A stretch of 64,000 nt of DNA from Candidatus Moraniibacteriota bacterium. Lineage in GTDB: Bacteria > Patescibacteriota > Minisyncoccia > Moranbacterales > UBA1568. The position numbers and the translations under genes were made by a program. The notes under the pieces are model-generated. The model was not told where the DNA came from. It ran no database searches and saw nothing but the letters and a program-made list of their open reading frames with translations. The stretch lies in assembly GCA_018061645.1 (NCBI GenBank), contig JAGOTT010000001.1:65090-129089 (forward strand), read 5' to 3'. Below, in pieces: positions 2,981-59,494 of this stretch. Each line of letters starts with the position of its first letter. The first letter of the stretch is position 1.

Positions 2981-3328
2981 TTAAGCAAGTCTTTTTATAA
3001 ACCCGGAGAGCATTCTTGATATTTCAACGGATTGCCCATACAGAGTATCAAACTTTCTTTGATTTATGTATCCGAGGTCGAGTGCTATATACAGCATGGA
3101 TCGGACTTCGCCGCTGGAGCCTTTTGCTATGAAAAGAAAATTTTTCAATTCCTTATCACTCTTACGTTCGAATCCTTCGGCGATATTGTTCATGACGGAG
3201 ACAGCTGCTCTCTGAATCTGATCGCGGAATCCGTAGTCTTTCATCTGCGAAAAAATACCGTATATGTCCGAGACGAGAATTCTTGACTTCTTCCATGCCT
3301 CGATGTCTTCGAACGTTTGTATACTCAT
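2981..3328 (-). CDS. Four-helix-bundle protein (23S rRNA intervening-sequence protein family, TIGR02436/PF05635-like)
   Basis: 115 aa; motifs QIQRAAVSVMNNIAEGF and FLFIAKGSSGEVRSMLYIA; paralog of ORFs at 39898, 41672, 50352. Confidence 0.9.
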   Translation of the reverse strand: MSIQTFEDIEAWKKSRILVSDIYGIFSQMKDYGFRDQIQRAAVSVMNNIAEGFERKSDKELKNFLFIAKGSSGEVRSMLYIALDLGYINQRKFDTLYGQSVEISRMLSGFIKRLA

Positions 3329-7718: not shown

Positions 7719-8984
7719 TTGATATTTACGTTTCGCATTTCGTCCCAACGCGAAAAACATGATGATACGAATATGTTTTCGAGCAAGAAAAGCCTGAAAA
7801 TACTGATGATCGCCCCGACACCGTTTTTCGCGGATCGGGGAACGCATATCCGCATTCTCGAGGAAGCGCTCGCCTTGCGGCGGCGCGGGCACGAGGTCAC
7901 GATAGCGACCTATCATATCGGGAACGACCTTCCGGAAGAAACAGCGAACGGAATCGACGTGCGTCGGATCCGGAGGCTCCTCTTCTGGTACAAGAAACTC
8001 GAAGCGGGACCGGACTGGCAGAAGATCATCCTCGACCTCATGCTCATCCGAAAGACATTTTTTCTCGCGCGAACCTGGAAGCCGGATATCATCCATGGAC
8101 ATCTCCACGAAGGCGTCCTCATCGGATGGATCGTGAAGCGTGCGCTTTTTTGGAGGAATATGAGACTCGTCGCGGATTTTCACGGGAGCCTGACGAAGGA
8201 GATGGTCTCGCACGAGTATCTCGGAGGCGGACTCCTCCGGAAGGTTTTCGAGCGGATCGAGCGGGTTATCGACAACCTCGGCGACGCGGCGGTCGCGAGC
8301 TCGTGGACCAATGCCGCCGATATATCGCGTATCCGGCGACGCGGCGGCGTCGAAGTCGCGCTCGACGGTGCCAGGATGCATGATCGTCTTGACGCGGAAA
8401 AACGTCTGCTTGTCCGCGAGAAGCACGGTATTCCGGCCGACGCGACGGTTATCGTCTATACCGGTGCCTTCATCGCCAACAAAGGGATCAAAGCGCTCGT
8501 CGGAGCGATGCCTTCGGCGCTTGCACGTGACGGAAACCTTTTTTTCGTAGTCGCCGGGTTTCCCCGCAACGAGCTTGAACCGCTCCTCGAGGAACAGGAA
8601 ATCCGTTCCCGCGTCAAGATCATAAGCCCTCTCCCGTATTTCGAACTCGGGGAAATCCTCGGGATGAGCGATATCGCGATCGATCCGAAACGCGACGGGA
8701 CGGGGCAGGCGAGCGGAAAGATGCTTCAGTACATGGGAGCGGAGCTGCCGGTGGTCTGTTTCGACACGCGGAACAACCGTGAGTACCTCGGCGACGGGGG
8801 AGTATTCGCGACGGACGATACCACCGAAGCGCTCGCGGATGCGATCGTCGCACTTTCCGCGCGCCGTGACGACTGGGAGAAACTCGGCGGAGACAACGGT
8901 ATCCGTGCGCATGCGTTCAGTTGGGATAAGACCGGTGAAAAATTGGAAGGAATCTATGAAATTGTTTCTCGTAAAGATCGGTAA
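7719..8984 (+). CDS. Glycosyltransferase family 4
   Basis: 421 aa (start may be second Met at ~7773); GT4-like N-domain and C-domain; antisense 462-aa ORF rejected. Confidence 0.8.
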   Translation: MIFTFRISSQREKHDDTNMFSSKKSLKILMIAPTPFFADRGTHIRILEEALALRRRGHEVTIATYHIGNDLPEETANGIDVRRIRRLLFWYKKLEAGPDWQKIILDLMLIRKTFFLARTWKPDIIHGHLHEGVLIGWIVKRALFWRNMRLVADFHGSLTKEMVSHEYLGGGLLRKVFERIERVIDNLGDAAVASSWTNAADISRIRRRGGVEVALDGARMHDRLDAEKRLLVREKHGIPADATVIVYTGAFIANKGIKALVGAMPSALARDGNLFFVVAGFPRNELEPLLEEQEIRSRVKIISPLPYFELGEILGMSDIAIDPKRDGTGQASGKMLQYMGAELPVVCFDTRNNREYLGDGGVFATDDTTEALADAIVALSARRDDWEKLGGDNGIRAHAFSWDKTGEKLEGIYEIVSRKDR

Positions 8985-10197
8985 GGCGTGGACAGCGATA
9001 CGGCGGGAGGGATTATTCTCCGGCGGGAAACGGGTATTTGGCGCGTTCCTTACATTGTTTCGCCGCGTCCATCCCGGGGATATCCTGTTTGTCACGAACG
9101 GGGTCGGGGACAGCGCCCGCTACCGCTGCGAGCATGTCGCGGAGGAGCTCCGTTTCCGCGGGTTTCGAACCGCTGTCACCGTGCAGGACAACCCGTTCCT
9201 TCCGTCGTATGCGGATCGGTTCGCGGTATTCGTCTTTCATCGCGTACTCTACACTCCGTCGGTCGCGAAACTCGTCGAGCGCATCAAGGAGCAGGGAAAG
9301 GAAATCATCTTCGAGACGGATGACCTCGTGTACGATCCCGCGTACCTCGTTCACATGGATTATTTCAAGGTCATGAATCCGCTCGAACGCAAGCTCTATG
9401 AACATGGTGTCGGCGGAGAGATTCTCGCCGACCCGTACGTGAAGGTGGCGACGACCACGACGACGTTCCTCGCCGACAAGCTTCGTGAGAGAGGGAAGCA
9501 GGTCTTTATCGTTCCGAACAAGCTTTCGGAAGCGGACGTGCGGATCGCCTCTGTCATTGCGAGCGAAGCGCGGCAATCCAGTCAGAAAAAGACTTCATGG
9601 ATTCCCGGGTCAAGCCCGAGGATGACAAATGATAAAATTACCCTCGCCTACTTCTCCGGGTCCGCGTCCCACAACAAGGACTTCGCGACCATCACCGGAC
9701 CCTTGCTTTCGATACTCGGGAAATATCCCGAGACGGAGCTTTTCATATATGGTCCGCTCGACCTCGACGCGCGGTTCGATGCATTCGGAGATCGCGTGAA
9801 AAAGGTTCCGTATACGCCGCGCGAAAAACATCTGGAGAATGTCGCTGCGACCGACGTCAATCTGGCACCGCTCGAGATTGGCAATCCCTTTTGCGAGTCG
9901 AAGTCGGAACTCAAATTCTTCGAAGCGGGGATATTCGGCGTACCGACGGTCGCCTCCGCTACCCGTACTTTCCGGGAAGCGATCGAGGACGGAGAAGACG
10001 GCTTCACGGCGGCCACGGATGCGGAATGGACAACCAAACTCGAAAAACTCATACTGGATCCCGCGTTGCGCGAAGAAATGGGAGAGAAAGCCCGTGCGAA
10101 GTCGCTTGAGAAATACGCGACGATGAACGCCAAGAACGAATCCTATTATCAGTATCTCATCGGCAAGATAGCGAAATCCATTCCTGCGTCATCCTGA
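8956..10197 (+). CDS. Glycosyltransferase (GT4-like) carrying an in-frame palindromic-repeat insertion
   Basis: start moved to ATG giving MKLFLVKIG; C-terminal GT motif FFEAGIFGVPTVAS; peptide SVIASEARQSSQKKTSWIPGSSPRMTNDK encoded by repeat 9552-9628. Confidence 0.75.
   Translation: MKLFLVKIGKAWTAIRREGLFSGGKRVFGAFLTLFRRVHPGDILFVTNGVGDSARYRCEHVAEELRFRGFRTAVTVQDNPFLPSYADRFAVFVFHRVLYTPSVAKLVERIKEQGKEIIFETDDLVYDPAYLVHMDYFKVMNPLERKLYEHGVGGEILADPYVKVATTTTTFLADKLRERGKQVFIVPNKLSEADVRIASVIASEARQSSQKKTSWIPGSSPRMTNDKITLAYFSGSASHNKDFATITGPLLSILGKYPETELFIYGPLDLDARFDAFGDRVKKVPYTPREKHLENVAATDVNLAPLEIGNPFCESKSELKFFEAGIFGVPTVASATRTFREAIEDGEDGFTAATDAEWTTKLEKLILDPALREEMGEKARAKSLEKYATMNAKNESYYQYLIGKIAKSIPASS
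9552..9628. repeat. Family-1 palindromic repeat element, in-frame inside GT gene
   Basis: tgtcattgcgagcgaagcgcggcaatccag ... ggattcccgggtcaagcccgaggatgacaa; first 33 nt identical to copy at 42815-42847. Confidence 0.8.
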
Positions 10198-10208: not shown

Positions 10209-11654
10209 ATGCCGATATCGCAAGGAAAGCGGAACGGCTTCGAAATGTCTGATTCAAAACCCATGATAAAAATATTCCTTGGCTGTTTCCTCTTCGCCGT
10301 GTCGCTGTTCACTGCGCCGCCGCTTCCGGCCGCGGAGTATTCGCTGTATGTCGACGGGAGCGCGGAGGATGACGGAGACGGGAGCAAGGACGATCCTTTC
10401 CGGAAGTTGTCCGATGCCATAGAGGAAGCGGAAGGCGGGGATCGGATACATATCGAGAACGGGGAATATTCCGGCGGATTCACCGTTCCGGAGTCCGTTT
10501 CGCTTCATGGTGAGGATCGCGACAAGACGGTCATCAAGGGGACGGTCACGGCCTCGAATAAGACCTCCTTCTCCGATCTGACGGTATCCGGCGGTTCGAC
10601 GGCGATCCTCATCGTCAAGGATGCCAAAGTGCGGATCGAGCGATGCGCCATCCGGGATGCCGCGAAAATCGGCATCGAGATCGTCGCGGGTAACGGCGAA
10701 CTCGTCATCCGAAAATCGAAGCTCTACAAGAACGGAAAGGGTGTCTATATCCAGAAGGGGAACAACTTCGATATCGCCGGATCCGCGGTGTATCGGAACG
10801 ATGAGGAGGGACTCGATATCCGCAACGATGTGGACGGAGTGATCGCAGGGAACGAGATTTACGACAACGGCGAGTCCGGCATCGAGATCATCCTCGGGGA
10901 GAGCGATATGCTCATCGAGAAGAATGTCATTTCCGGAAACGCGGCGAGCGGCATCGCTTCCCAATTCTATACCGACTATAAGAAAACCGGTGACACTCGT
11001 ATCAGGGGGAACACGATCAAGAAGAACGGAAGCTATGGGATAAACTGCAAGACCCCGAGCGGAGGTAATCCGTCCGCCGCTTATTGGGGAAAATCCATGC
11101 TTATCGAGAAAAATATCTTCTCCGGAAACAAGGAAAAAGAGATCGCCGGACGATGCAACATCCCGCTCGGCGAGGATGTCGAGCAGGTGACGAAGGAGCA
11201 GATCGTCGTTGCGGATCCGGCGGCGGCAGGGAAGAGTGCCGAGGAGGAAGCCGCGAGGCTCGCCGCCGAGGAGGAGGCGAAGCGGGTGGTGGAAGCGGAT
11301 GCGAAGATACGGGAAGAGGCAGAGACGATCATCGCTGAATTCGATGCGACGAGGACTCGGGTAGGTGAAGTCTTCCGGGCCGTGGACGAACGCGCTCCTT
11401 CGAAATACTGGTATTGGCTGCTCGGTCCGGATGAGGAGAGCGTCTTATCGGCCGGAAACGAAGTCGCTACCGCGAAGTTTCAGTTCGAACGGCTTCGGGA
11501 TATCTCGGTGCAGTCGCCCGTCACCGAGACACGGCTCGAGCTCGAAGGAAAACTTCCCGACCTTGAAGCATACGTCTCGGAGCAGGAGCGGATCCTCTCC
11601 GAAAAAAACCGGGATCTTAGTTTTTGGAACCGCGTCAAGAAACTGTTTTTATAA
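10209..11654 (+). CDS. Secreted right-handed parallel beta-helix repeat protein with C-terminal coiled-coil
   Basis: 481 aa; signal-like N-terminus; repeated GNxxxxN/beta-helix motifs (IRNDVDGVIAGNEIYDNGESGIEI); Ala/Glu-rich C-terminus. Confidence 0.7.
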   Translation: MPISQGKRNGFEMSDSKPMIKIFLGCFLFAVSLFTAPPLPAAEYSLYVDGSAEDDGDGSKDDPFRKLSDAIEEAEGGDRIHIENGEYSGGFTVPESVSLHGEDRDKTVIKGTVTASNKTSFSDLTVSGGSTAILIVKDAKVRIERCAIRDAAKIGIEIVAGNGELVIRKSKLYKNGKGVYIQKGNNFDIAGSAVYRNDEEGLDIRNDVDGVIAGNEIYDNGESGIEIILGESDMLIEKNVISGNAASGIASQFYTDYKKTGDTRIRGNTIKKNGSYGINCKTPSGGNPSAAYWGKSMLIEKNIFSGNKEKEIAGRCNIPLGEDVEQVTKEQIVVADPAAAGKSAEEEAARLAAEEEAKRVVEADAKIREEAETIIAEFDATRTRVGEVFRAVDERAPSKYWYWLLGPDEESVLSAGNEVATAKFQFERLRDISVQSPVTETRLELEGKLPDLEAYVSEQERILSEKNRDLSFWNRVKKLFL

Positions 11655-12634: not shown

Positions 12635-12679
12635 CCTCCTGCGCTATCCCAGCCGATACCTGTTCCCGCCCTTCTTCTG

Positions 12680-12706
12680 CTATTCTGAGCGTAGCGAAGA
12701 ATCCAG
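12680..12706. repeat. Family-1 repeat half-element (intergenic)
   Basis: ctattctgagcgtagcgaagaatccag. Confidence 0.6.
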
Positions 12707-12741
12707 TCTTTGAGAAACTTCCCAAAAAATGATTCTTTCGT

Positions 12742-13131
12742 ATGGAAAAAGATTTCGACGAGTGGAATTCGAAAAAGAAACAACTTGATGTTGTATCAAG
12801 GAAACTTCTTTTCAAGGAGGGTGAGATCTGGTGGTGCTCCATTGGCGTGAATGTCGGAGAGGAGGTTTATGGGAAAGGAGAATACTTCCGTCGTCCGGTC
12901 GTGATACTGCGGAAGCTCTCGGGGAATACCTGTATCGTCATGCCGACGACGACGCGGGAACGAAGTGGAAGCTGGTATCATCATCTGAATATCCGAAATA
13001 AGGACAGGTGGGTAATGATGAATCAGATTCGCCTTATTTCAGCGAACCGACTCTGGGTTCGTGAATCCACTTTGTCGAGAGAGGAATTTGAGGAATTAAA
13101 AAAGTCCGTAGCAGGACTGCTCGGACTTTGA
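12742..13131 (+). CDS. PemK/MazF-like endoribonuclease toxin (apparently solitary)
   Basis: 129 aa; GEIWWCSIGVNVGEE..RPVVIL and CIVMPTTTR / NQIRLISANRLW resemble PemK/Kid; no antitoxin ORF recognised nearby; low-GC surroundings. Confidence 0.55.
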   Translation: MEKDFDEWNSKKKQLDVVSRKLLFKEGEIWWCSIGVNVGEEVYGKGEYFRRPVVILRKLSGNTCIVMPTTTRERSGSWYHHLNIRNKDRWVMMNQIRLISANRLWVRESTLSREEFEELKKSVAGLLGL

Positions 13132-13255
13132 TAATTGGTCACCCCGCCGAGGCGGGGATCAGTGGGTAACCCCAAATGTACCATAATTATACGCCTTTTT
13201 TCGGTAAAGTCAAGTCCGTTAGTCAAATCGTCGTCTTGCGCTCGCCTCTTCAGCT

Positions 13256-13290
13256 TTTTCATTCCGAGCGAGTTCTCGAGTCGAGAAATC
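13256..13290. repeat. Family-1 repeat unit (intergenic)
   Basis: ttcattccgagcgagttctcgagtcgagaaatc, same subtype as 25921-25955. Confidence 0.6.
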
Positions 13291-13292
13291 TG

Positions 13293-20015: not shown

Positions 20016-20612
20016 ATGGATAAAAAGCCAAAAAAAGGTGAATACATAGAGATCATATTACGATCTCAAAAAACGGTCTTCTCTACGAAAGACATTGCTT
20101 TGTTGTGGGGTGAAAGAGTGAACGTCTCTGTTCGTGTGAGACTTTCTGATTATGTGAAAAATAAAAAGTTGATCAGAGTTCGTCAGGGTATTTACGTCAA
20201 AGATAACAATTATGATCGACAGGAATTAGCGACTCGAATTTATACCCCGGCATATATCAGCTTTGAAACCATATTGACTCGAACAGGAATAAACTTTCAA
20301 TATTACGGAAACATTTTTGTTGCTTCCTATGTCACCAGAGAGATTGAAATTGATGGACAAAAAATAAATTTCGTGAGAATGAAGGATTATGTGTTGAGCA
20401 ATACGATCGGAATTGAAGAGCAGGACAACGTAGCCAGAGCGACCAAGGAACGCGCATTTCTTGATAGGGTATATATCAGCAAAGATTATCACTTCGACCA
20501 CTTGAATGTTCTGGATTGGGACAAGGTTTTTGAAATTTTGCCAATCTATCGTAACGAAAAAATGAACAAGAAAGTGGAGGAGTATTACCAATCATACAAA
20601 GAAACACTATGA
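20016..20612 (+). CDS. AbiEi-like antitoxin/transcriptional regulator (type IV TA, abortive infection)
   Basis: 198 aa; translationally coupled (ATGA overlap) to DUF1814 nucleotidyltransferase; AbiEi_4-like composition. Confidence 0.55.
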   Translation: MDKKPKKGEYIEIILRSQKTVFSTKDIALLWGERVNVSVRVRLSDYVKNKKLIRVRQGIYVKDNNYDRQELATRIYTPAYISFETILTRTGINFQYYGNIFVASYVTREIEIDGQKINFVRMKDYVLSNTIGIEEQDNVARATKERAFLDRVYISKDYHFDHLNVLDWDKVFEILPIYRNEKMNKKVEEYYQSYKETL

Positions 20613-21304
20613 CCATTGATTATCCAAAACACAGAAATATCCTCCTACAGATATTGAAAGATATTTTTTCCGACACATCTATAGCCCCATTCTTAGGATT
20701 CAAGGGTGGTACAGCTGCTTTGATGTTCTATGATCTGGATCGCGATTCTGTCGATATCGATCTCGACTTATTAGACGAAAGCAAGGAGCAAGAGGTGTTT
20801 GAAAAGATTCAAAAGATAGTTGCTCGTTACGGCAAGATGATTGATTCAAAAATGAAACGATTCAATCTTGTGGTTGTCATATCGTATGCGGAGAAATCTC
20901 AGAATATCAAGGTTGAAGTAAGCCGTCGGAATTTTGGTTCAAAATACGAGTCAAAAACACTTTTGGGCATCCCGATGCTCGTCATGGTTCAGGAAGATAT
21001 GTTTGCCAATAAATTGATGGCAATGTATGAACGGATTGGCAAGACGAGTCGAGACGTGTATGATGTGTATTTTTTTGCGAAAAATCGTTGGTCAATAAAC
21101 AAGACATTGGTTGAGAATCGAGCTAATATTCCGTATAAAGAGCTATTGACAAAGTGTATCCAGCTATTGGAAAAAATGGATAATCGTCATATTCTCGATG
21201 GTCTCGGCGAAATGCTTTCCGAACCAAAGAAAGATTGGGCTCGAGCAAAACTTCGGACAGATACTATTTTTCTCTTGGAAGTATTGAGAAGTTTCGAAGA
21301 ATAA
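20609..21304 (+). CDS. AbiEii/AbiGii-family nucleotidyltransferase toxin (DUF1814)
   Basis: 231 aa; motif GFKGGTAALMF and DIDLD typical of DUF1814 NTases. Confidence 0.65.
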   Translation: MTIDYPKHRNILLQILKDIFSDTSIAPFLGFKGGTAALMFYDLDRDSVDIDLDLLDESKEQEVFEKIQKIVARYGKMIDSKMKRFNLVVVISYAEKSQNIKVEVSRRNFGSKYESKTLLGIPMLVMVQEDMFANKLMAMYERIGKTSRDVYDVYFFAKNRWSINKTLVENRANIPYKELLTKCIQLLEKMDNRHILDGLGEMLSEPKKDWARAKLRTDTIFLLEVLRSFEE

Positions 21305-24891: not shown

Positions 24892-26655
24892 TTAGAGGTA
24901 GTATCTTGGAATAATCACATTCACGATCGCATAGAGCTGGAGGAGTATCATCGCGAGCGCAAGGATTTTCAAGATCATTTCAAAAGTCTTTTCTCCATCT
25001 GTCATTCTGAGCGTAGCGAAGAATCCCGTTCCTATTTTGTCATTCTGAGCGTAGCGAAGAATCCCGAGATTCCTCGATAGACTCGGAATGACAATACCCC
25101 TTACCCACGAAACCGCAATCCCGACCCCGACGACGACAAGCACCAGATGCCCGATAAGGTTCGGCAGGAAATACCGTCCCGGCTGTCCGATGAGTACCTG
25201 TCCGGTTGCGTCGAATACGCGCCAGTCGTAGAAACGGATGGCGAACTGGAGCGAAATAATCATCCCGAGAAAAAACACGAGATACTTCCGTTCCGGCACC
25301 CGCCCCACTTTGTCATTGCGAGGGAGCACAGCGACCGCGGCAATCCAGTCCATTTTTTTCAAAACAGGCGCCAATAAATACATAAGCACCGCCACAAATC
25401 CGACGATCTCGATCCAATTGATGACCGACAGGATCCACTCCGGAATCGGTGTGTCGAGCCATCCGAAGTTTCCCCAGTACGAAAGTAACGTGTCGCGGAA
25501 TTCTCCCTGACGCATGGTCTTGTCGAGATACTTACCAATCGATTCGAGAGGGGAGTCGAACTTTGATAGAGCGGTCGCATTGGTGATCCCGATAAGATAA
25601 TCCTTCGGCACTGCAAGCAGACCGAACCCGACCAGTGTGATGGTTGTAATTCCGAGATACGCGAAAAACTTTCGCACTTTGTCATTCCGAGCTTCCTTCC
25701 TGTCATCCCGAGCGTAGTCGAGGGATCTCGTATATCGCTGATACGCCCCCCACACAAACAAAGGATACAACGCGGCAACGAGCACGATCCCCGGACCCTT
25801 CGAGAGGAGTCCGAGCACCGCGGCGATGATTGCGATAATCGCCCACTTTGTCATTCCGAGCCCCCCGTCTGTCATTCTGAGCGTAGCGAAGAATCCCGTC
25901 CCTTTGGCGGCATCTCCTTCTTTGTCATTCCGAGCGAGTTTTCGAGTCGAGGAATCTACGCTTCGTAGAAACGAAACCCCCGCATACAGGAACAACGAGA
26001 ACGAGAAAATGAGCGCGACATCGATATTTACCTGCGCTGCGGTGATAGCGAACATCGGCTGAAAAGCGACCAGCGTAGTGAAGAGTAGTGAAGTCTTTTC
26101 CGAAAGCCCGATTTTTCGCACGGTCAGATACATGAGCAGGACCGTCGCCGCACCGAAGGCAACCCCAAGCATTCGCATCGAGAAAATTCTGGTGAAGATG
26201 CTCTCATCGGAGAAGAACCGCTCGAGCCACGACGCGAAAAGGTAATAAACGGATTTCGTGCCGGACGTAGCTGTCGGACTTACGTCGACGTATCGCTTCC
26301 AGTCGTTTTCAGTGATCTGCTTTTCCAGTGATTTATCGGAAAAATTCTGTATATTTTGTCGCTCGAAGGTGAGTTCGTTGAATTTTGCGATAGAAGCGCT
26401 TTGCACCATCTCTTCCGGAAGATTCGATGTCCGGATATCTTTTGCGTCGATGAAGTATTTTCCGCTTTCGTACGCATGTATTTCCCATGTCTTCTCCTTT
26501 GGTTCCGCCCAGTGCTGTGCGGTTCCGTAATGCACCTGCTCATCCGGATTCTGGAACATCGGAATGAGAAAGCTCAAAACGGCGCCTTCAACAGCGAAAA
26601 GCGCGAGCAATGCCGCGAGCCGCATATTTGGAGTGGATATTTGCGGAAGCCTCAT
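24892..26655 (-). CDS. Polytopic GT-C (PMT-like) membrane glycosyltransferase heavily invaded by in-frame palindromic repeats
   Basis: 587 aa; loop-1 motif NPDEQVHYG (PMT FDEVHF-like); contains at least 7 family-1 repeat units all read as ARNDK/GFFATLRMTD peptides. Confidence 0.55.
   Translation of the reverse strand: MRLPQISTPNMRLAALLALFAVEGAVLSFLIPMFQNPDEQVHYGTAQHWAEPKEKTWEIHAYESGKYFIDAKDIRTSNLPEEMVQSASIAKFNELTFERQNIQNFSDKSLEKQITENDWKRYVDVSPTATSGTKSVYYLFASWLERFFSDESIFTRIFSMRMLGVAFGAATVLLMYLTVRKIGLSEKTSLLFTTLVAFQPMFAITAAQVNIDVALIFSFSLFLYAGVSFLRSVDSSTRKLARNDKEGDAAKGTGFFATLRMTDGGLGMTKWAIIAIIAAVLGLLSKGPGIVLVAALYPLFVWGAYQRYTRSLDYARDDRKEARNDKVRKFFAYLGITTITLVGFGLLAVPKDYLIGITNATALSKFDSPLESIGKYLDKTMRQGEFRDTLLSYWGNFGWLDTPIPEWILSVINWIEIVGFVAVLMYLLAPVLKKMDWIAAVAVLPRNDKVGRVPERKYLVFFLGMIISLQFAIRFYDWRVFDATGQVLIGQPGRYFLPNLIGHLVLVVVGVGIAVSWVRGIVIPSLSRNLGILRYAQNDKIGTGFFATLRMTDGEKTFEMILKILALAMILLQLYAIVNVIIPRYYL
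25000..25094. repeat. Family-1 repeats: two tandem units plus inverted partner
   Basis: tgtcattctgagcgtagcgaagaatccc x2 (25000, 25039) then gagattcctcgatagactcggaatgacaa. Confidence 0.85.
25311..25348. repeat. Family-1 repeat unit
   Basis: tgtcattgcgagggagcacagcgaccgcggcaatccag. Confidence 0.75.
25678..25729. repeat. Family-1 repeat, two tandem left-arm units
   Basis: tttgtcattccgagcttccttcctgtcatcccgagcgtagtcgagggatctc. Confidence 0.75.
25846..25955. repeat. Family-1 repeat, three tandem units
   Basis: tgtcattccgagcc.., tgtcattctgagcgtagcgaagaatccc, tgtcattccgagcgagttttcgagtcgaggaatc. Confidence 0.8.
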
Positions 26656-34238: not shown

Positions 34239-34264
34239 GATTCCCGCCTTCGCGGGAATGACAG
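34239..34264. repeat. Family-1 repeat half-element, self-complementary hairpin
   Basis: ggattcccgccttcgcgggaatgaca. Confidence 0.6.
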
Positions 34265-37912: not shown

Positions 37913-38000
37913 TGAGATTCCTCGACTCCAAGACTCGCTCGGAATGACAAAATGATGAAATCCTTCGACTGCGCTCAGGATGACAGCTTCGCTGTCATTT
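37913..38000. repeat. Family-1 repeats (two reverse-orientation units) in GT2-DUF2304 intergenic spacer
   Basis: gagattcctcgactccaagactcgctcggaatgacaa and gaaatccttcgactgcgctcaggatgaca; preceded by low-complexity tandem repeats 37861-37912. Confidence 0.75.
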
Positions 38001-39897: not shown

Positions 39898-40260
39898 ATG
39901 GAAAAGGATATCCTGAAGGAGAAGATGGATGGATTAGCGAAGGGTGTCTATGATGTGACAAAGAAATTTCCAAAGGATGAGATTTATGGAATAACATCGC
40001 AGTTGAGAAGGGCATCCTTATCGGTTATCCTGAATTATGTCGAAGGATTTGCTCGAACGGGTGACAAGGAATTGAAAAACTTTCTTCAGATATCGTACGG
40101 GTCGCTGAAAGAAACGAAATACCTTATATTTTTCTGTACCCGAGAAAAGTATATGACAAAGAAGGAGTATGGAGCTCTTATGGCGTTGACAGATGAGATA
40201 GGGGCGATGCTTTGGAAAAGAATCCAGAGCGTGAAAGGAAGAATCGCTGCTGGTAAGTGA
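39898..40260 (+). CDS. Four-helix-bundle protein (23S rRNA IVS protein family)
   Basis: 120 aa; QLRRASLSVILNYVEGF, FLQISYGSLKETKYL. Confidence 0.9.
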   Translation: MEKDILKEKMDGLAKGVYDVTKKFPKDEIYGITSQLRRASLSVILNYVEGFARTGDKELKNFLQISYGSLKETKYLIFFCTREKYMTKKEYGALMALTDEIGAMLWKRIQSVKGRIAAGK

Positions 40261-40271
40261 GTGTTCGCTAT

Positions 40272-40314
40272 AAACTGTTTTCTGTTGACTGTTAATTGTT
40301 GATTGTTAACTGTT
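40272..40314. repeat. Family-2 repeat / right IR of four-helix-bundle gene B
   Basis: aaactgttttctgttgactgttaattgttgattgttaactgtt immediately abutting ugd ATG. Confidence 0.65.
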
Positions 40315-41625
40315 ATGAAGTTGTCCTTCATCGGGACGGGGTACGTGGGGCTGGTGTCGGGGACGTGCATGGCGGAAATCGGTCACGAGGTGATCTGTGC
40401 GGATATCGACAAGAAGAAAATCGACAAGCTCAAGCGGGGAGGAATCCCGATCTATGAGTTCGGTCTCGAGGAGCTGATCAAGGAGAACGTGCGCCAGGAA
40501 CGGCTGTCCTTCACGACGGACGTGGGTAGGGCGATCCGCGAGGCGGATGTCATTTTCTCCGCGGTTGGAACGCCGCCCCATCCCAAGACCGGCGAGGCGG
40601 ATCTCCGGTACGTGTTCGCAGCGGCGGAAACCTTCGGAAAGAACCTGAACGGGTACAAGATCTTCGTGAACAAATCCACGGTCCCGGTCGGGACGGCGGA
40701 ACGGGTGCACGCCGCGATCGCGAAAGCAAGTGATGGAAAATTCGAGTTCGATGTCGTCTCGAATCCGGAATTCCTCCGCGAGGGCGCGGCGGTCAAGGAT
40801 TTCCTCAATCCGGACCGGGTCGTCGTCGGTGCGGACAGCGAGCGTGCCTGGGAGATAATGGAAAAGGTCTATCGCCCGATCGCCCGTTCGGGGCGTCCGG
40901 TGGTGCTGACCGACGTGAAAAGCGCGGAAATCATCAAATACGCGTCGAACGCATTTCTTGCGACCAAGATATCTTTCATAAACGAGATCGCCCGGTTCAT
41001 CGACAAGGCCGGCGGCAACGTGAAGGAGGTGTCACGCGGGATGGGATTCGACAGCCGGATCGGCTCGCGATTCCTCTATGCCGGTATCGGGTATGGCGGG
41101 TCGTGCTTCCCGAAGGACGTGAAGGCGCTCATCCACACGGGCAAGGAGCATGGCGTGGACTTCACCATTCTCGAAGCGGTGGAGGCGACCAATGAGAGAC
41201 AGAAGCTCCTGCCGGTCGCGCATCTGCGGAAATCGCTCAAGACGCTCAAAGGGAAGCGGATCGCGCTTTGGGGTCTTTCGTTCAAACCGCGGACCGACGA
41301 TGCGCGCGAAGCGCCGGCACTTTCGATCATCGAGGCGCTCACCAAGGCAGGGGCGTCGATTCAGGCTTTCGATCCGGTCGCGACCGAGAACGCCAAAGGA
41401 TTCATCGGCAGGAACGCGAAAGTGAAGTATGTGACGAAACAATACGATGCGCTCGACAAGGCGGATGCGCTCGTCATCGTCACCGAGTGGGATGAGTTCC
41501 GTACCGCGGATTACAAGGAGATCGGCAAGCGCATGAAAGGGCGGGTGATCGTCGATGGACGCAATATCCTCGAGCGCGAGGAAGCCGAAGCCGCGGGATT
41601 CGTTTACTATGGGGTTGGAGTCTGA
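40315..41625 (+). CDS. ugd: UDP-glucose 6-dehydrogenase
   Basis: MKLSFIGTGYVGLVSG, GGSCFPKDV catalytic Cys motif, 436 aa. Confidence 0.9.
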   Translation: MKLSFIGTGYVGLVSGTCMAEIGHEVICADIDKKKIDKLKRGGIPIYEFGLEELIKENVRQERLSFTTDVGRAIREADVIFSAVGTPPHPKTGEADLRYVFAAAETFGKNLNGYKIFVNKSTVPVGTAERVHAAIAKASDGKFEFDVVSNPEFLREGAAVKDFLNPDRVVVGADSERAWEIMEKVYRPIARSGRPVVLTDVKSAEIIKYASNAFLATKISFINEIARFIDKAGGNVKEVSRGMGFDSRIGSRFLYAGIGYGGSCFPKDVKALIHTGKEHGVDFTILEAVEATNERQKLLPVAHLRKSLKTLKGKRIALWGLSFKPRTDDAREAPALSIIEALTKAGASIQAFDPVATENAKGFIGRNAKVKYVTKQYDALDKADALVIVTEWDEFRTADYKEIGKRMKGRVIVDGRNILEREEAEAAGFVYYGVGV

Positions 41626-41671: not shown

Positions 41672-42043
41672 ATGACCAATGACCAATCCCCGAAAAAGAA
41701 ATTCGATCTTGAGGATCGGACGCTTGATTTTGCGAAGCGAGTCGTACGGATGTGTAAGGAGCTACCGACGAACACCGTAAACGATAATCTTGTAGATCAA
41801 GTGATCCGCTCCGCTGGTTCGGTCGGAGCGAATTATCGTGAAGCGAATGATGCGCTTGGTACGAAAGACTTTCTGATGCGTCTGAAGATTTCTCGAAAAG
41901 AGGTGAAAGAGACACATTTCTGGCTGGAGCTTATCATCGAAGCAAATCCGGATCTGAAGAAAAGAATCGAAAGCCTGTTTCAAGAATCGCTCGAGTTGAA
42001 AAAGATTCTTTCTGCTATAATCACGAAACTCCAGAATAAATGA
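41672..42043 (+). CDS. Four-helix-bundle protein (23S rRNA IVS protein family)
   Basis: 123 aa; VIRSAGSVGANYREAN, FLMRLKISRKEVKETHFWL; close paralog of 50352..50723. Confidence 0.9.
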   Translation: MTNDQSPKKKFDLEDRTLDFAKRVVRMCKELPTNTVNDNLVDQVIRSAGSVGANYREANDALGTKDFLMRLKISRKEVKETHFWLELIIEANPDLKKRIESLFQESLELKKILSAIITKLQNK

Positions 42044-42095: not shown

Positions 42096-42106
42096 AATTG
42101 GTGATT

Positions 42107-43429
42107 ATGAAAGTGTTATTTCTCAATTATGAGTATCCTCCGCTCGGTGGAGGTGCGGCGAACGCGACGCGGTATATCCTGCGGGAGTTTTCGCGCATGC
42201 CGGGTGTCGAGGCACATCTCGTGACGAGCGGGATGGGGAAGGAGTATGAGAAGGAACATATCGGCGGATCCGTGTGGGTGCATCGGCTGCCGATTGGCAA
42301 GGATCCGGGAAAGATCCACTCGCAGTCGGTGCGGGATCTGATTGTCTACAGCGCGAAGGCGTGGTGGTTTTCTTCGTGGATCATCCGTACGGCGAAACGC
42401 GAGGGAAATCCCTTCGACCGGACGATTGCCTTTTTCGGGATTCCCTGCGGGGCGCTCGCTCTTTGGTTCAAGTGGCGGTTTGGTATCCCATATGTCGTGT
42501 CGCTCCGCGGGTCGGATGTCCCCGGATACAGCGAGAAGTATGACCGGCTCTATCTTTTCCTCGCGCCGTTCGTCCGGCTCGTGTGGAAGAAGGCGCTCGC
42601 GGTCGTTCCGAACAGTCGGGGGCTCGCGGAACTTGCCGGAAAGACCGCTCCGCGACAGGCATTCGAAATTATTCCGAACGGTGTGGACACGGAGGAATTC
42701 CGTCCCGATCCGGCGCGCGAACGTGACGGATATTTCCGCATACTGGCCGTGTCCCGGCTTACGCCGCGGAAGGGGATTCGATTCCTCATCCGGGCGATGT
42801 CGATACTTTCTCCGTCTGTCATTGCGAGCGAAGCGCGGCAATCCAGTGAAAAGGGAAAAGGACTGGATCGCCACGCCTCTGGCGAAGACGTCGGGGCTCG
42901 CGATGACAGATATTCGAAACTGGAACTCTGGATCGCGGGTGACGGGGAGGAGAAAGCGGAACTTGAAGTGCTCGCGAAGGAATGCGGCGTCTCCGACAAG
43001 GTGAAGTTCTTCGGGGCGGTACCGCATGAGCATCTCGGCCGATACTACGGACTTGCGGACGTCTTCTGTCTGCCGTCGCAGAACGAGGGCATGAGCAACA
43101 CCGTGCTCGAGGCGCTCGCGGCGGGGCTCCCGATCGTCGCGACGGTGACCGGCGGGACGGAGGAATTGATCCGTGACGGGGAGAACGGTCTCTTCGTCGT
43201 ACAACGGTCGCCGGAGGATCTCGCCGAGAAGCTCGGAAAACTCTTGGCCGACGAGTCACTCCGAGTGCGTATGGGAGAGGCGGGCCGGAAGCGTGCCGAG
43301 GAGATGAATTGGGAAAGCGTTGCAGGCCAATTTCTTGAGCTGTGCTCAAGAAAAAAAGCACAAATCTTAGAACACAAAGATCCAAACAAAACACAGACCA
43401 CAAAACTGAAAACTGACCGATCGGAATGA
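42107..43429 (+). CDS. Glycosyltransferase family 4 with in-frame palindromic-repeat insertion in interdomain linker
   Basis: MKVLFLNYEYPPLGGGAANA; C-terminal EGMSNTVLEALAAGLPIV; inserted peptide SVIASEARQSSEKGKGLDRHASGEDVGARDDR from repeat 42817-42908. Confidence 0.85.
   Translation: MKVLFLNYEYPPLGGGAANATRYILREFSRMPGVEAHLVTSGMGKEYEKEHIGGSVWVHRLPIGKDPGKIHSQSVRDLIVYSAKAWWFSSWIIRTAKREGNPFDRTIAFFGIPCGALALWFKWRFGIPYVVSLRGSDVPGYSEKYDRLYLFLAPFVRLVWKKALAVVPNSRGLAELAGKTAPRQAFEIIPNGVDTEEFRPDPARERDGYFRILAVSRLTPRKGIRFLIRAMSILSPSVIASEARQSSEKGKGLDRHASGEDVGARDDRYSKLELWIAGDGEEKAELEVLAKECGVSDKVKFFGAVPHEHLGRYYGLADVFCLPSQNEGMSNTVLEALAAGLPIVATVTGGTEELIRDGENGLFVVQRSPEDLAEKLGKLLADESLRVRMGEAGRKRAEEMNWESVAGQFLELCSRKKAQILEHKDPNKTQTTKLKTDRSE
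42817..42908. repeat. Family-1 palindromic repeat element, in-frame inside GT4 gene
   Basis: tgtcattgcgagcgaagcgcggcaatccagt ... ctggatcgcc...ctcgcgatgaca. Confidence 0.8.
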
Positions 43430-50268: not shown

Positions 50269-50303
50269 GCAGAGGATACAAGAGACAAGAAATGCAACGT
50301 TGG

Positions 50304-50327
50304 AAGAAACAAGGTACAAGAAACAAG
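50304..50327. repeat. Left inverted repeat flanking four-helix-bundle gene D (aagaaacaaggtacaagaaacaag)
   Basis: 22/23 match to reverse complement of 50737-50760. Confidence 0.7.
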
Positions 50328-50351
50328 ATACAAAAAATCCGAAATACGAAA

Positions 50352-50723
50352 ATGACCGAAGTGAAACAAAAAGAGAAGAGATTTGACCTGGAGGAAAGGA
50401 CGTTGGAGTATTCGAAAAGAGTTCTCCGGTTGTGCAAAAGTCTCCCAAAGAATGGTATCAATCGGGAGATGGCTGATCAGCTGTTTCGTTCCGCAAGCTC
50501 CGTCGGGGCGAATTATCGGGAAGCGAACGACGCCCTTGGTAAGAAGGATTTTGTCATGAGGATAAAGATATCCAGAAAAGAAGCGAAGGAGGCCGAGTAT
50601 TGGTTGAAGCTGGTTGCGGAAGGTAATCCTGAAATGAAAGAAAAAATGAGTGGGCTTATCGATGAAACAAAGGAGCTGCGGATGATATTTTCTTCCATAA
50701 TAAGCAAGGTTTCAGTGAATTGA
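50352..50723 (+). CDS. Four-helix-bundle protein (23S rRNA IVS protein family)
   Basis: start at MTEVKQKEKRFDLEERTLEYSKRVL aligning with paralog 41672; LFRSASSVGANYREAN. Confidence 0.9.
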   Translation: MTEVKQKEKRFDLEERTLEYSKRVLRLCKSLPKNGINREMADQLFRSASSVGANYREANDALGKKDFVMRIKISRKEAKEAEYWLKLVAEGNPEMKEKMSGLIDETKELRMIFSSIISKVSVN

Positions 50724-56293: not shown

Positions 56294-57802
56294 ATGGGAT
56301 TTCAAAAACTCTCAAAATACGCGTTTTTCTCCTTTCTCTTCCTCCTCCCGTTTCAGACGGTGCTTTTGCTGCGCGAGCCGATTATGGCCGGGGAGAAGTG
56401 GCAGTACGGAACGATCGGATTGTATGGAACGGATATTTTGTTGTTAGCAGCGCTTGTCTTTCATTTGTCATCCCGAGCGCAGTCGAGGGATCTTCATATG
56501 AAATGGCGGATTCCTCGATTCGCGGACTCGCTCGGAATGACAGAAGGGATACTCATCCTCTTCCTTTTGTGGGTGGGAGCGTCTGTCTTCTGGGCGACCG
56601 ATACGGTGCTCGCCGGATATTTTTTTGCGAAGCTGCTTCTCGGAGCGGGGGTGTTCTTCCTTGCGCGGTCACTTGATGATACGGGTGTGGGAATGGCGGT
56701 GAAAGTCCTGCTTGCGGCGGCGGTCATCCAGGTGCTGATCGGGATCGGGCAATTCCTGTATCAGACGGCGCCCGCGTCGACTCTGCTCGGGATGAGTGCG
56801 CATGAAGCGTGGACTGCGGGGACGTCCGTCTTGAAGCTGGAAGAAGGACGCTTCCTCCGCGCGTACGGATCATTCCCACACCCGAATATGCTTGGGGGAT
56901 TCTTGGCAGCGGTTTTCGTATTGGGTATTTCGTATTTGGTATCTGGTATCAAAACCATCTCTGTCATTGCGAGCGTAGCGAAGCAATCCAGGGAGAAGGA
57001 TCTTAGCCAAACACTTTCTGGATTGCCACGGGTTCGAAGACTCACCCTCGCAATGACGGCGGAGTGGGCTGGTGTGCTGATCATCCTCCTTGCTCTCATC
57101 CTCACGTTTTCCCGAGCCGCATGGCTCGGTGTAGCGATGGGAATCGTCGCGTATTGCGTATTTCGTATCCTGTATCCCTCCCATCAGACAAAATCAAAAT
57201 GTATCATAATTCCACGGCCGTGGAATTATGATACATTTTTCAAGACGATGTTCGTTCTGGGGATAGCGACGGCGGTGTTCGTGTTCGTGCTCCGTGACCA
57301 GGTGTTTCCGCGGTTCGACACGGCGGCAATCGAACGGGAAGGGTCGGTGTCGGAGCGGGTCGTGTCGCTTCGGGACGCGAAGACACTCATTGTAGAACAT
57401 CCGATCATCGGGGTCGGCGCGGGCAGCTTCACGAAAGCGATCATGGAAAACGAGCCGGATCGTCCGGTGTGGAGCGTCCAGCCGGCGCATGATGTCTTCG
57501 TTCTTGTCTGGGCGGAGCTGGGAGTGGTTGGAGCTGTGCTGTTCGTGGTGTTTTTTCTTTCTGTCATCGCGAGCGTAGCGTGGCGATCCAGAAATCAGGA
57601 AAAGAGTCTGGATTGCCACGGAGGCGAAACGCCTCCTCGCAATGACAGGGGAGTGGGTTTGGTGTTGGGAAATCAATCCATCATCTTTGCGATAGCATTT
57701 CTTACGCTTCTCCCGGGTCTCCTCCTCGACCATTGGCTCTGGTCGTCGCACTTCGGGTTATTGTTTTTCTTCCTACTGGCAGGATTTTCGAACAGAAAAT
57801 GA
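56294..57802 (+). CDS. O-antigen ligase/polymerase family (Wzy_C-like) membrane protein with three in-frame palindromic insertions
   Basis: 502 aa; LTFSRAAWLGVAMGIVAY motif; repeats at 56466-56542, 56962-57057, 57562-57647 keep frame. Confidence 0.65.
   Translation: MGFQKLSKYAFFSFLFLLPFQTVLLLREPIMAGEKWQYGTIGLYGTDILLLAALVFHLSSRAQSRDLHMKWRIPRFADSLGMTEGILILFLLWVGASVFWATDTVLAGYFFAKLLLGAGVFFLARSLDDTGVGMAVKVLLAAAVIQVLIGIGQFLYQTAPASTLLGMSAHEAWTAGTSVLKLEEGRFLRAYGSFPHPNMLGGFLAAVFVLGISYLVSGIKTISVIASVAKQSREKDLSQTLSGLPRVRRLTLAMTAEWAGVLIILLALILTFSRAAWLGVAMGIVAYCVFRILYPSHQTKSKCIIIPRPWNYDTFFKTMFVLGIATAVFVFVLRDQVFPRFDTAAIEREGSVSERVVSLRDAKTLIVEHPIIGVGAGSFTKAIMENEPDRPVWSVQPAHDVFVLVWAELGVVGAVLFVVFFLSVIASVAWRSRNQEKSLDCHGGETPPRNDRGVGLVLGNQSIIFAIAFLTLLPGLLLDHWLWSSHFGLLFFFLLAGFSNRK
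56466..56542. repeat. Family-1 palindromic element in O-antigen-ligase-like gene
   Basis: tgtcatcccgagcgcagtcgagggatc ... ggattcctcgattcgcggactcgctcggaatgaca. Confidence 0.8.
56962..57057. repeat. Family-1 palindromic element in O-antigen-ligase-like gene
   Basis: tgtcattgcgagcgtagcgaagcaatccag ... ctggattgccacgggttcgaagactcaccctcgcaatgac. Confidence 0.85.
57562..57647. repeat. Family-1 palindromic element in O-antigen-ligase-like gene
   Basis: tgtcatcgcgagcgtagcgtggcgatccag ... ctggattgccacggaggcgaaacgcctcctcgcaatgaca. Confidence 0.85.
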
Positions 57803-57920
57803 AACCGCTTCGGTCGATAATGACGAAGCGGTCTTTTTTTTGTCTCGATCGATGATACGAAAAGCGGGATTCTTCGCTTCCCTCCAAAGGCGGGCAGGCG
57901 CTCAGAATGACATGCAGGAG

Positions 57921-59420: not shown

Positions 59421-59494
59421 AGCGACTTTTTCATGTTTTAACTTCGGGACATGCTAACACGGAAACCGGATTCCGGGAAGGGTCATGTGTCGAT

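Follow-up and report, generated by a model that had tools for sequence, protein, structure and literature searches.

Why should two otherwise dissimilar glycosyltransferase (GT) genes carry the same 33 nucleotides without a single mismatch? The question is raised by a 64,000-nt stretch of DNA from Candidatus Moraniibacteriota bacterium, a member of the Candidate Phyla Radiation (CPR) (GenBank assembly GCA_018061645.1, contig JAGOTT010000001.1, positions 65,090 to 129,089 of the forward strand). This whole stretch is hereafter called the window, and positions are those of the window. The sequence TCTGTCATTGCGAGCGAAGCGCGGCAATCCAGT occurs in it twice on the plus strand, at 9550-9582 and 42815-42847, and is identical at 33 of 33 positions; it found no match in 100 shuffles. 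A first-pass annotation of the same DNA had reported this identity, which our analysis reproduced, and had read it as a sign of recent transposition or gene conversion. In our analysis the 33-mer is probably one unit of an ancient and widespread family of hairpin repeats, that of the CGTC-tagged REPs and the Neisseria NTS, and thus an element of a familiar kind, met here in a new host lineage. We have little doubt that the element as a whole is an in-frame CGTC-REP/NTS-like dimer.

Architecture of the shared element

The two host genes, here termed GT-1 and GT-2, and the parts of the element within them are the following.

8956-10197, plus strand: GT-1, encoding a 413-aa GT-B glycosyltransferase (Pfam, orthologue alignment, AF2 model)
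9550-9582, plus strand: left ("short") unit of the GT-1 dimer (exact match, unit finder)
9583-9596: spacer of the GT-1 dimer, 14 nt (sequence)
9597-9627, minus strand: right unit of the GT-1 dimer, reading TGTCATCCTCGGGCTTGACCCGGGAATCCAT (match to the strict SRM expression described below; kept in the orthologous loci L006 and L007)
42098-43429, plus strand: GT-2, encoding a 443-aa GT4 glycosyltransferase (Pfam, orthologue alignment, AF2 model)
42815-42847, plus strand: left ("short") unit of the GT-2 dimer, the same as 9550-9582, with TGTC at 42816-42819 (exact match, unit finder)
42848-42861: spacer of the GT-2 dimer, 14 nt (sequence)
42862-42910, minus strand: right ("long-loop") unit of the GT-2 dimer, reading TCTGTCATCGCGAGCCCCGACGTCTTCGCCAGAGGCGTGGCGATCCAGT (unit finder)

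At both sites the 33-mer is the left half of a head-to-head heterodimer, in which the tags point outward and the CCAG tails face each other. The dimer measures 78 nt in GT-1 and 96 nt in GT-2, and the right halves are unrelated units, which bears out the earlier observation that the right arms diverge; the ends found here for the first dimer (9550-9627) also agree with the span of 9550-9628 given to it before. In the left unit of GT-1 the tag is TGTC (9551-9554), the outer stem pairs ATTGC with GCAAT over 5 bp, and the interior holds a GCGAAGC mini-hairpin; the CCAG tail comes directly after the stem, in both copies of the 33-mer. As single-stranded DNA (ssDNA), the 33-mer is predicted to fold as.(((..(((((..(((...))).))))).))). 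at -6.9 kcal/mol (z -2.3). The inner GCGAAGC (9563-9569 and 42828-42834) is presumably the exceptionally stable DNA mini-hairpin d(GCGAAGC); sister units have GCGTAGC at this place. The whole GT-2 dimer forms one long imperfect hairpin, with predicted ssDNA energies of -27.2 / -28.9 kcal/mol (z -4.4 / -6.1). Rfam returned nothing over the whole window at gathering thresholds, nor over both elements at E<=1, and a literature search for the sequence string of the unit found no printed occurrence.

A family of tagged hairpin units in the window

Units were located with a strict finder that requires GTCAT, at least 5 perfect outer pairs and a C after the stem. It returned 23 units in 64 kb, against 2.6 expected and a maximum of 6 in first-order Markov simulations, and approximately 19 of the units in the window are obvious members of one family. 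Each consists of an unpaired (T/C)GTC tag, carried by all family units of the window, a first stem arm that begins with AT, an interior that varies, a second, complementary arm with AT at its end, and a C(CAG) tail. The outer stem occurs in five Watson-Crick versions (ATTGC/GCAAT, ATTCC/GGAAT, ATCCC/GGGAT, ATTCT/AGAAT and ATCGC/GCGAT). Among 48 distinct units from the window and related Moranbacteria loci, defined by head and tail motifs alone, 28 have a perfect 5-bp stem; 80% of the stem cells are paired, compared to 70% in shuffles (none of 500 reached 80%) and 19-49% with the partner slid. The stems tolerate a few G-T(U) pairs, and AT...AT is invariant in 29 of 29 distinct head/tail constructs.

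Fifteen of the approximately 19 units lie in frame inside four envelope genes, and about four are intergenic. The host genes other than GT-1 and GT-2, and the intergenic units, are listed below.

24892-26655, minus strand: DUF2142/PMT-like membrane glycosyltransferase gene with four in-frame clusters (25001-25092, 25312-25345, 25680-25727 and 25849-25956) that hold at least 7 units (Pfam, open translation, unit list)
56294-57802, plus strand: Wzy_C (O-antigen-ligase-like) gene with three in-frame head-to-head dimers (56467-56541, 56963-57057 and 57563-57646), the frame being open throughout (translation, Pfam, unit list)
34239-34262, minus strand: intergenic, almost perfect NTS of the Neisseria type, TGTCATTCCCGCGAAGGCGGGAATCCAG; stem of 8 bp, loop of 4 nt (strict SRM match at 34263(-); fold at -10.1 kcal/mol, z -4.1)
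37916-37984, minus strand: two intergenic units in tandem orientation (unit lists)
57868-57911, minus strand: long-loop unit in the intergenic interval that separates the Wzy_C gene from RtcB, which is convergent with it (unit finder)
12676-13291: MazF/PemK toxin gene (12742-13131) between two degenerate units with mutated tags, 12676-12708 (GCTAT head) and 13255-13291 (TTCAT head) (unit lists, Pfam)

The three dimers of the Wzy_C gene and those of GT-1 and GT-2 (9550-9627 and 42815-42910) all have their tags outside and unlike halves. The MazF/PemK gene has no obvious antitoxin open reading frame (ORF) by Pfam, and a sibling contig holds a small DUF6922 gene at the corresponding position. The longest ORF at 57840-59441(+) is a spurious antisense frame; the real gene there is RtcB, at 57921-59420(-), and the choice between the two affects the counts of coding and intergenic units.

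Across genes and orthologues, the units are read in three forward frames (SVIA.., CHSE.. and SFPRR..) and two reverse frames (..ARNDK/..ARDD and ..LRMT/..PGMT); the third reverse frame would put a TGA in the tag. Since every usable frame of these DNA units is employed somewhere, they constitute an element at the DNA level and no protein module. The opposite reading, that the peptide SVIASEARQSS is selected for enzyme function, could draw on the frame that both window genes share with a 1059-aa ORF of an unrelated metagenome contig. It is highly improbable in view of the other frames, of the exact copies elsewhere, most of which are intergenic, of the orthologues, most of which have no insert, and of the low-confidence coil as which the inserts are modelled. 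Intragenic position was also gauged, for the window and for loci of other phyla, by the length of the longest ORF across a unit; this measure was dropped because spurious long ORFs in high-GC genomes confound it.

A role at the RNA level, in which an mRNA hairpin would act on translation, stability or RNase III processing, was also weighed. The GT-2 dimer is a very stable hairpin on either strand, the few G-T(U) pairs would be compatible with an RNA stem, and the older REP literature proposes RNA roles. However, the units of the window lie in both orientations relative to transcription, as well as between genes, and tag and tail are kept whatever the coding strand; there is no Rfam match even at the permissive threshold, and the published nuclease of this repeat family binds ssDNA and not RNA (PMC11893778). 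We consider such a role improbable as the explanation of the element, although it could coexist with one at the DNA level.

Position of the inserts in the host enzymes

The two host genes are dissimilar, as had been claimed. GT-1 and GT-2 show no DNA similarity beyond a stretch of about 40 nt, and the proteins align over the C-terminal domain only, where they are 30% identical; a recent duplication of the host genes is therefore excluded. Their earlier assignment to GT4 stood for GT-2, for which Pfam demonstrates it; the Pfam matches of GT-1 are limited to C-terminal Glyco_trans_1 families. A protein annotated as Ca. Moranbacteria (P0001) is 100% identical to GT-2, and the nearest database proteins assign the window to this lineage of the CPR/Patescibacteria.

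Both copies of the 33-mer translate in one shared frame as SVIASEARQSS, as first reported. To locate the inserts we used AlphaFold (AF2) models built with 64-68 homologues, with a mean predicted local confidence (pLDDT) of 87 and 90 for the two proteins. In GT-1 the dimer codes for aa 199-227 (SVIASEARQSSQKKTSWIPGSSPRMTNDK) in the interdomain linker, where the modelled insert extends a helix and then continues as coil (residues 213-224 with pLDDT <50), directly followed by the first strand of the C-domain (228-233). In GT-2 it codes for approximately aa 239-273 (pLDDT ~58-63), inside the C-terminal Rossmann domain, where the insert separates the first helix (227-237) from the second strand (275-281); the interdomain linker of this enzyme, at about aa 184-212, is not the insert site. 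A position between the two domains, as previously proposed for both genes, thus holds for GT-1 and fails for GT-2. Peptides that span the insert junctions include ...ILSPSVIASEAR... and ...PRMTNDKITLAY... The inserts would be translated as disordered segments of approximately 27-34 aa that leave the GT fold intact; in the models they occupy low-confidence surface segments, probably flexible loops in which an insertion is tolerated. The earlier suggestion of a tolerated insertion into a flexible segment agrees with these low-confidence segments and with the short, empty loop of most orthologues.

Relation to known repeat systems

The CGTC-tagged REPs were defined by Di Nocera, De Gregorio and Rocco (2013; PMC3733652). 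Their tag is CGTC, often TGTC, with CCTC also accepted; the stem of 8-9 bp begins with A-T, T-A and encloses a loop of 4-5 nt (other loops are allowed in Bradyrhizobium CGTC-1), and an unpaired CCA tail follows. Dimers are mostly head-to-head, with the tags outside, and often heterodimers. The class spans 5 phyla, includes Neisseria dRS3 (CGTC-1) and Rickettsia RPE-6/RPE-4 (CGTC-1/CGTC-4), has intragenic dimers that code for 20-30 aa, and is associated with no dedicated transposase (PMC3733652). The units of the window agree with this definition in the TGTC tag, the AT-initiated stem, the CCA tail, the head-to-head heterodimers and the many copies (23 strict units in 64 kb), and the unit at 34239-34262 also has the 8-bp stem and 4-nt loop. 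They differ in their host, a CPR bacterium, in the interrupted stem of the 33-mer, in their location (REPs are mostly described as intergenic, whereas 15 of the ~19 units here are intragenic), and in the host genes, which encode envelope glycosylation enzymes rather than DNA repair functions.

According to Chenal et al. (2025; PMC11893778), the NTS of Neisseria (CGTCATTCCCGCGMAVGCGGGAATCYRG) and related motifs flank genes for Ssn, a 94-aa single-domain GIY-YIG nuclease. This enzyme recognises the hairpin in its ssDNA form, on one strand only and neither as RNA nor as duplex DNA, cuts a few bases upstream of it and, in Neisseria, lowers the transformation of repeat-flanked DNA (PMC11893778). 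The pattern published for the related motifs (SRM), HGTCWYN(0-2)YYVSBRHN(0-5)WNVSBRGN(0-2)RNCYNB (PMC11893778), matches the window at 9627(-), which is the right arm of the GT-1 dimer, and at 34263(-) only. The window units share with NTS and SRM the oriented GTCAT head, the hairpin and the C right after the palindrome, and the unit at 34239-34262 is almost a Neisseria NTS. The likeness extends to genes for single-domain GIY-YIG proteins of 93-97 aa between repeats, in relatives and in other phyla, and to the location of repeats near surface-related genes. The differences are the lack of an ssn gene in the window and the position of the 33-mer subfamily outside the published pattern. A text search of the 2025 paper found no mention of intragenic or in-frame copies, nor of CPR bacteria (PMC11893778).

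Two further systems were compared. The Rickettsia palindromic elements (RPE), described as "selfish DNA in protein-coding genes", are likewise palindromes that lie in frame in many unrelated genes, where they are tolerated owing to their position in surface segments, in a reduced, host-dependent bacterium with a compact genome. RPE-1 is longer, at about 100-150 bp. The kinship of RPE to the window units rests on the classification of RPE-4 and RPE-6 as CGTC REPs (PMC3733652). The REP/BIME-RAYT systems and REPINs resemble the present case in their short tagged hairpins, their inverted doublets and the gene for a small single-strand-specific enzyme amid its own repeats. They differ in the tag (GTAG versus CGTC/TGTC), in the enzyme (an HUH tyrosine transposase versus a GIY-YIG nuclease) and in being typically extragenic.

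Distribution among bacterial phyla

An exact-pattern scan with GTCATYGCGAGCGWAGCGNRGCRATCC over one genome per species returned at least 120 stretches. The matches listed come from Alpha-, Beta-, Gamma- and Deltaproteobacteria, Chloroflexi, Bacteroidota, Fibrobacterota, Firmicutes, Cyanobacteria, Spirochaetes, Planctomycetes, Acidobacteria and the CPR groups Saccharibacteria and Woesebacteria; one Rickettsiales metagenome-assembled genome (MAG) is among them. Among these matches the dominant unit type is CGTCATTGCGAGCGAAGCGAAGCAATCCAG, and the type found in the window (...GCGAAGCGCGGCAATCC) is rare, with 2 of 136; the cross-phylum consensus tail is ATCCAG, and 80% of the copies have a C at position -1. 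The exact 33-mer was found in 9 unrelated metagenome contigs with a GC content of 41-71%, mostly in intergenic dimers. Given that the unit type spans many phyla and the exact 33-mer recurs in these contigs, the identity of the two window copies probably reflects a conserved consensus. In one of the contigs (L134, 41% GC) the exact 33-mer lies at ~2440-2472 inside the ORF of 1059 aa mentioned above, where it again reads SVIASEARQSS, and in-frame carriage is therefore not confined to Moranbacteria.

Polymorphism and age of the inserts

Empty sites are common in related genomes, most orthologues having a short, empty loop at both positions. Of 60 GT-2 orthologues, the 36 more distant ones have a short loop, and 10 of the 24 closest carry repeat-type peptides with at least 6 different contents; repeat-type peptides occur in the linker of 17 of 120 GT-1 orthologues. 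Alignment of related loci at the DNA level gave the following states, with identities relative to the window.

GT-2, L001, 92.5% identical: loop empty
GT-2, L003, 85.5% identical: same dimer
GT-2, L002 (sibling), 83% identical: another unit pair behind the same left junction
GT-1, L006 (sibling), 95.8% identical: same dimer with two substitutions, one of them in the 33-mer
GT-1, L007, 75% identical: right unit retained, an NTS-type unit in place of the left one
GT-1, L008, 80% identical: one unit only
GT-1, L009, 74% identical: no unit

Since orthologous loops may be empty, hold the same dimer, hold other units or have the left unit swapped, single units appear to be acquired, lost or replaced one by one, at sites that stay fixed. 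In the comparison of the window with L003, the GT-2 dimer reaches 91.8% identity, the gene outside the element 84.6% and its third codon positions 71.3%. In that with L007, the right unit of GT-1 reaches 91.4% and the third codon positions of the gene 54.9%. Neither insertion is recent, because both are common to orthologues that retain only 71% and 55% identity at third positions while the element retains about 92%. These comparisons indicate that the insertions are older than the divergence of the strains and that they have changed more slowly than synonymous sites, as would be expected if they were constrained or homogenised at the nucleotide level.

The view that one copy of the 33-mer was recently transposed or converted from the other has to be set against this age. 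The identity of the two copies and the rarity of their type among the matches listed speak for it. The orthologous copies in L006 and L003 differ by one substitution each, the two window copies by none, which fits some homogenisation within the genome, and to that extent the conversion part of the earlier proposal may stand. Recent transposition does not, since both insertions are shared with diverged orthologues and the same 33-mer occurs, mostly in intergenic dimers, in unrelated contigs, where a consensus can give identity; moreover, the right halves of the two dimers are unrelated. We regard a recent copying event as unlikely. An assembly or binning artefact is practically negligible: although the source is a MAG and assemblers can be led astray by repeats into forming chimeras, the same dimers occur at the same sites in independent assemblies (an NCBI MAG, JGI 3300056789 and Logan SRR18708977), and the frames are open.

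Association of the units with Ssn-type nuclease genes

In a relative that is syntenic with the window (L131), a full-length 94-aa GIY-YIG gene lies between GT-2 and LPG_synthase and is bracketed by two units, one of which is identical to the window unit at 25701. In the sibling L002 the gene of the same repeat-ssn-repeat module has lost its catalytic half to an internal deletion that keeps the frame, and in a third relative the nuclease gene lies directly upstream of the GT-2 orthologue. In the L002 remnant (11274-11438), codons 5-44 are deleted between two ATCATAT microhomologies; the GIY-YIG motifs are gone, and an ORF is still called. Full-length Ssn-type homologues are common in Ca. Moranbacteria, and none of those named belongs to the accession series of the source genome.

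Units occur on either side of the gene, at distances of 0-50 nt, in all 7 loci with ssn or a remnant. Four of the 7 are flanked by the subfamily of the 33-mer itself (Woesebacteria, Marinospirillum, Rhodospirillales and the sludge contig L140). In L140 the ssn gene is bracketed by this subfamily, and the next unit downstream, 109 nt 3' of ssn, is the exact 33-mer. The Moranbacteria nuclease agrees with the published SsnA in length, single-domain build and Tyr/Tyr/Glu spacing; its Tyr7/Tyr18/Glu65 are numbered one higher than the catalytic Y6/Y17/E64 of the published enzyme (PMC11893778). NCBIfam has no model specific for the Ssn-type protein, and a PDB search with the Moranbacteria nuclease returned distant UPF0213 GIY-YIG structures only. 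On balance, we lean towards the involvement of an Ssn-type nuclease in this lineage. By analogy with Neisseria, the Moranbacteria enzyme would recognise these units as ssDNA hairpins, on one strand, and nick a few bases 5' of the tag.

The region behind GT-2 varies in other ways as well. In the window and in L001, GT-2 has a different, longer C-terminal tail (...ELCSRKKAQILEHKDPNKTQTTKLKTDRSE) that starts exactly where relatives carry the repeat-ssn-repeat module (43330-43429, versus 2830-3440 in L131 and 11100-11590 in L002). This suggests either that the frame now runs on into what was intergenic DNA, the module having been lost, or that in the other lineage the module was inserted at the stop codon. 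In L003, a 23S rRNA intervening-sequence protein (IVP) gene fragment (MTNDQSSKKKFDLEDRTLDFAKR...) follows GT-2 at ~11270-11370 instead of the nuclease module, so this intergenic spot seems to be a recurrent landing site for different small cassettes.

The identity of the bracketed gene also bears on whether the element is a classical MITE (a miniature transposable element with inverted repeats) or a REPIN, moved in trans by a DDE transposase or by a REP-associated tyrosine transposase (RAYT). Inverted-unit dimers with short conserved ends and presence/absence polymorphism would fit such an element. Against it, the tag is (C/T)GTC instead of GTAG, the ends have only their 6-nt tags in common, no target duplication was found at either site, and the halves of the dimer are exchanged independently. 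Moreover, the window has no RAYT-like coding potential (tblastn, with a single unreferenced RAYT probe) and no Y1 transposase domain in the scanned ORFs, CGTC REPs are not transposase-associated (PMC3733652), and the gene that units bracket encodes a GIY-YIG nuclease. A MITE or REPIN is thus very improbable.

Other elements in the window

Four genes for 23S rRNA intervening-sequence (four-helix-bundle, bAvd-like) proteins lie far from any rRNA gene.

2981-3328, minus strand: IVP gene
39898-40260, plus strand: IVP gene
41672-42043, plus strand: IVP gene
50292-50723, plus strand: IVP gene

Low-complexity inverted repeats enclose at least two of them in the manner of cassettes (39810-39840/40284-40314 and 50304-50352/50725-50760). 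Motifs of these flanks (40268-40324 and 50304-50337) appear translated in the GT-1 linker of other Moranbacteria (RKKQETRNKKQG, KAKSYKLKA, HVTCNMKQ and QNSKFKIQNS), which indicates that a second, unrelated repeat class lands in the GT-1 loop. An AbiEi/AbiEii toxin-antitoxin pair is found at 20016-21304, within the polysaccharide gene island.

Proposed route of gain, loss and exchange

A route by nick and repair could account for the observed changes, and we put it forward tentatively, as a possibility about which we remain doubtful. An Ssn-type nuclease would nick exposed ssDNA, either the lagging-strand template or incoming transforming DNA, and repair templated on other copies would result in gain, loss and exchange of units and in homogenisation of their sequence. 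Purifying selection would then leave in-frame, stop-free copies in tolerant loops, and most surviving copies would be intragenic because this selection acts in a compact genome. Selection against disruptive copies is the simplest reason for the survival of units in tolerant loops.

Several points weigh against this account and against the assignment to the CGTC-REP/NTS family. The stem of the 33-mer, broken by an internal loop into 5 + 3 bp and capped by 3 unpaired nt, contrasts with the 8-9 bp of CGTC REPs, and the 33-mer fails the published SRM search pattern, for which reason we call it an SRM-like variant and not a pattern-defined SRM. The whole GT-1 dimer folds weakly (z -1.4 / -1.6). We infer the translation of the inserts from open frames. 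Comparison of filled and empty alleles of GT-1 and GT-2 defined no target-site duplication or clean empty-site junction; these alleles differ in their flanks as well, so that the ends of the element lack single-base precision. Searches of the 64-kb window by Pfam, a six-frame GIY-YIG motif scan and tblastn (probes: three GIY-YIG types, the Ssn of L131 and L140, and one unreferenced RAYT sequence) found no ssn, other nuclease or transposase, and the nuclease gene may be absent from, or have been lost by, the source genome. For the Moranbacteria nuclease, the only family match is to GIY-YIG in Pfam (PF01541, E 2e-14), and we know of no strand-transfer activity in a GIY-YIG nuclease. Even in Neisseria no mechanism of spreading is established: the 2013 survey found no transposase (PMC3733652), and the 2025 work a cognate nuclease only (PMC11893778).

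If the 33-mer is a repeat unit of this family, SVIASEARQS, ...ARNDK, ...LRMT and comparable motifs of CPR proteins stem from repeats inserted in loops and are best masked before analyses of homology or structure. A bolder reading, which we consider quite unlikely, is that CPR units live mainly inside genes as exchangeable cassettes at fixed "landing-pad" loops of cell-envelope enzymes, into which an Ssn-type nick and its repair copy another unit. If this were true, hairpin-templated conversion would diversify the loops of surface-glycan enzymes, or mark loci against recombination with incoming DNA, or both. Populations of Moranbacteria offer natural experiments on these questions: within a few per cent of divergence, a loop may be empty, filled or occupied by another unit, half of a dimer may be swapped, and the nuclease gene beside the host gene may be present, internally deleted or absent. 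From these populations one could infer how units were gained, lost and converted, and the nuclease could be assayed on the repeats that belong to it.

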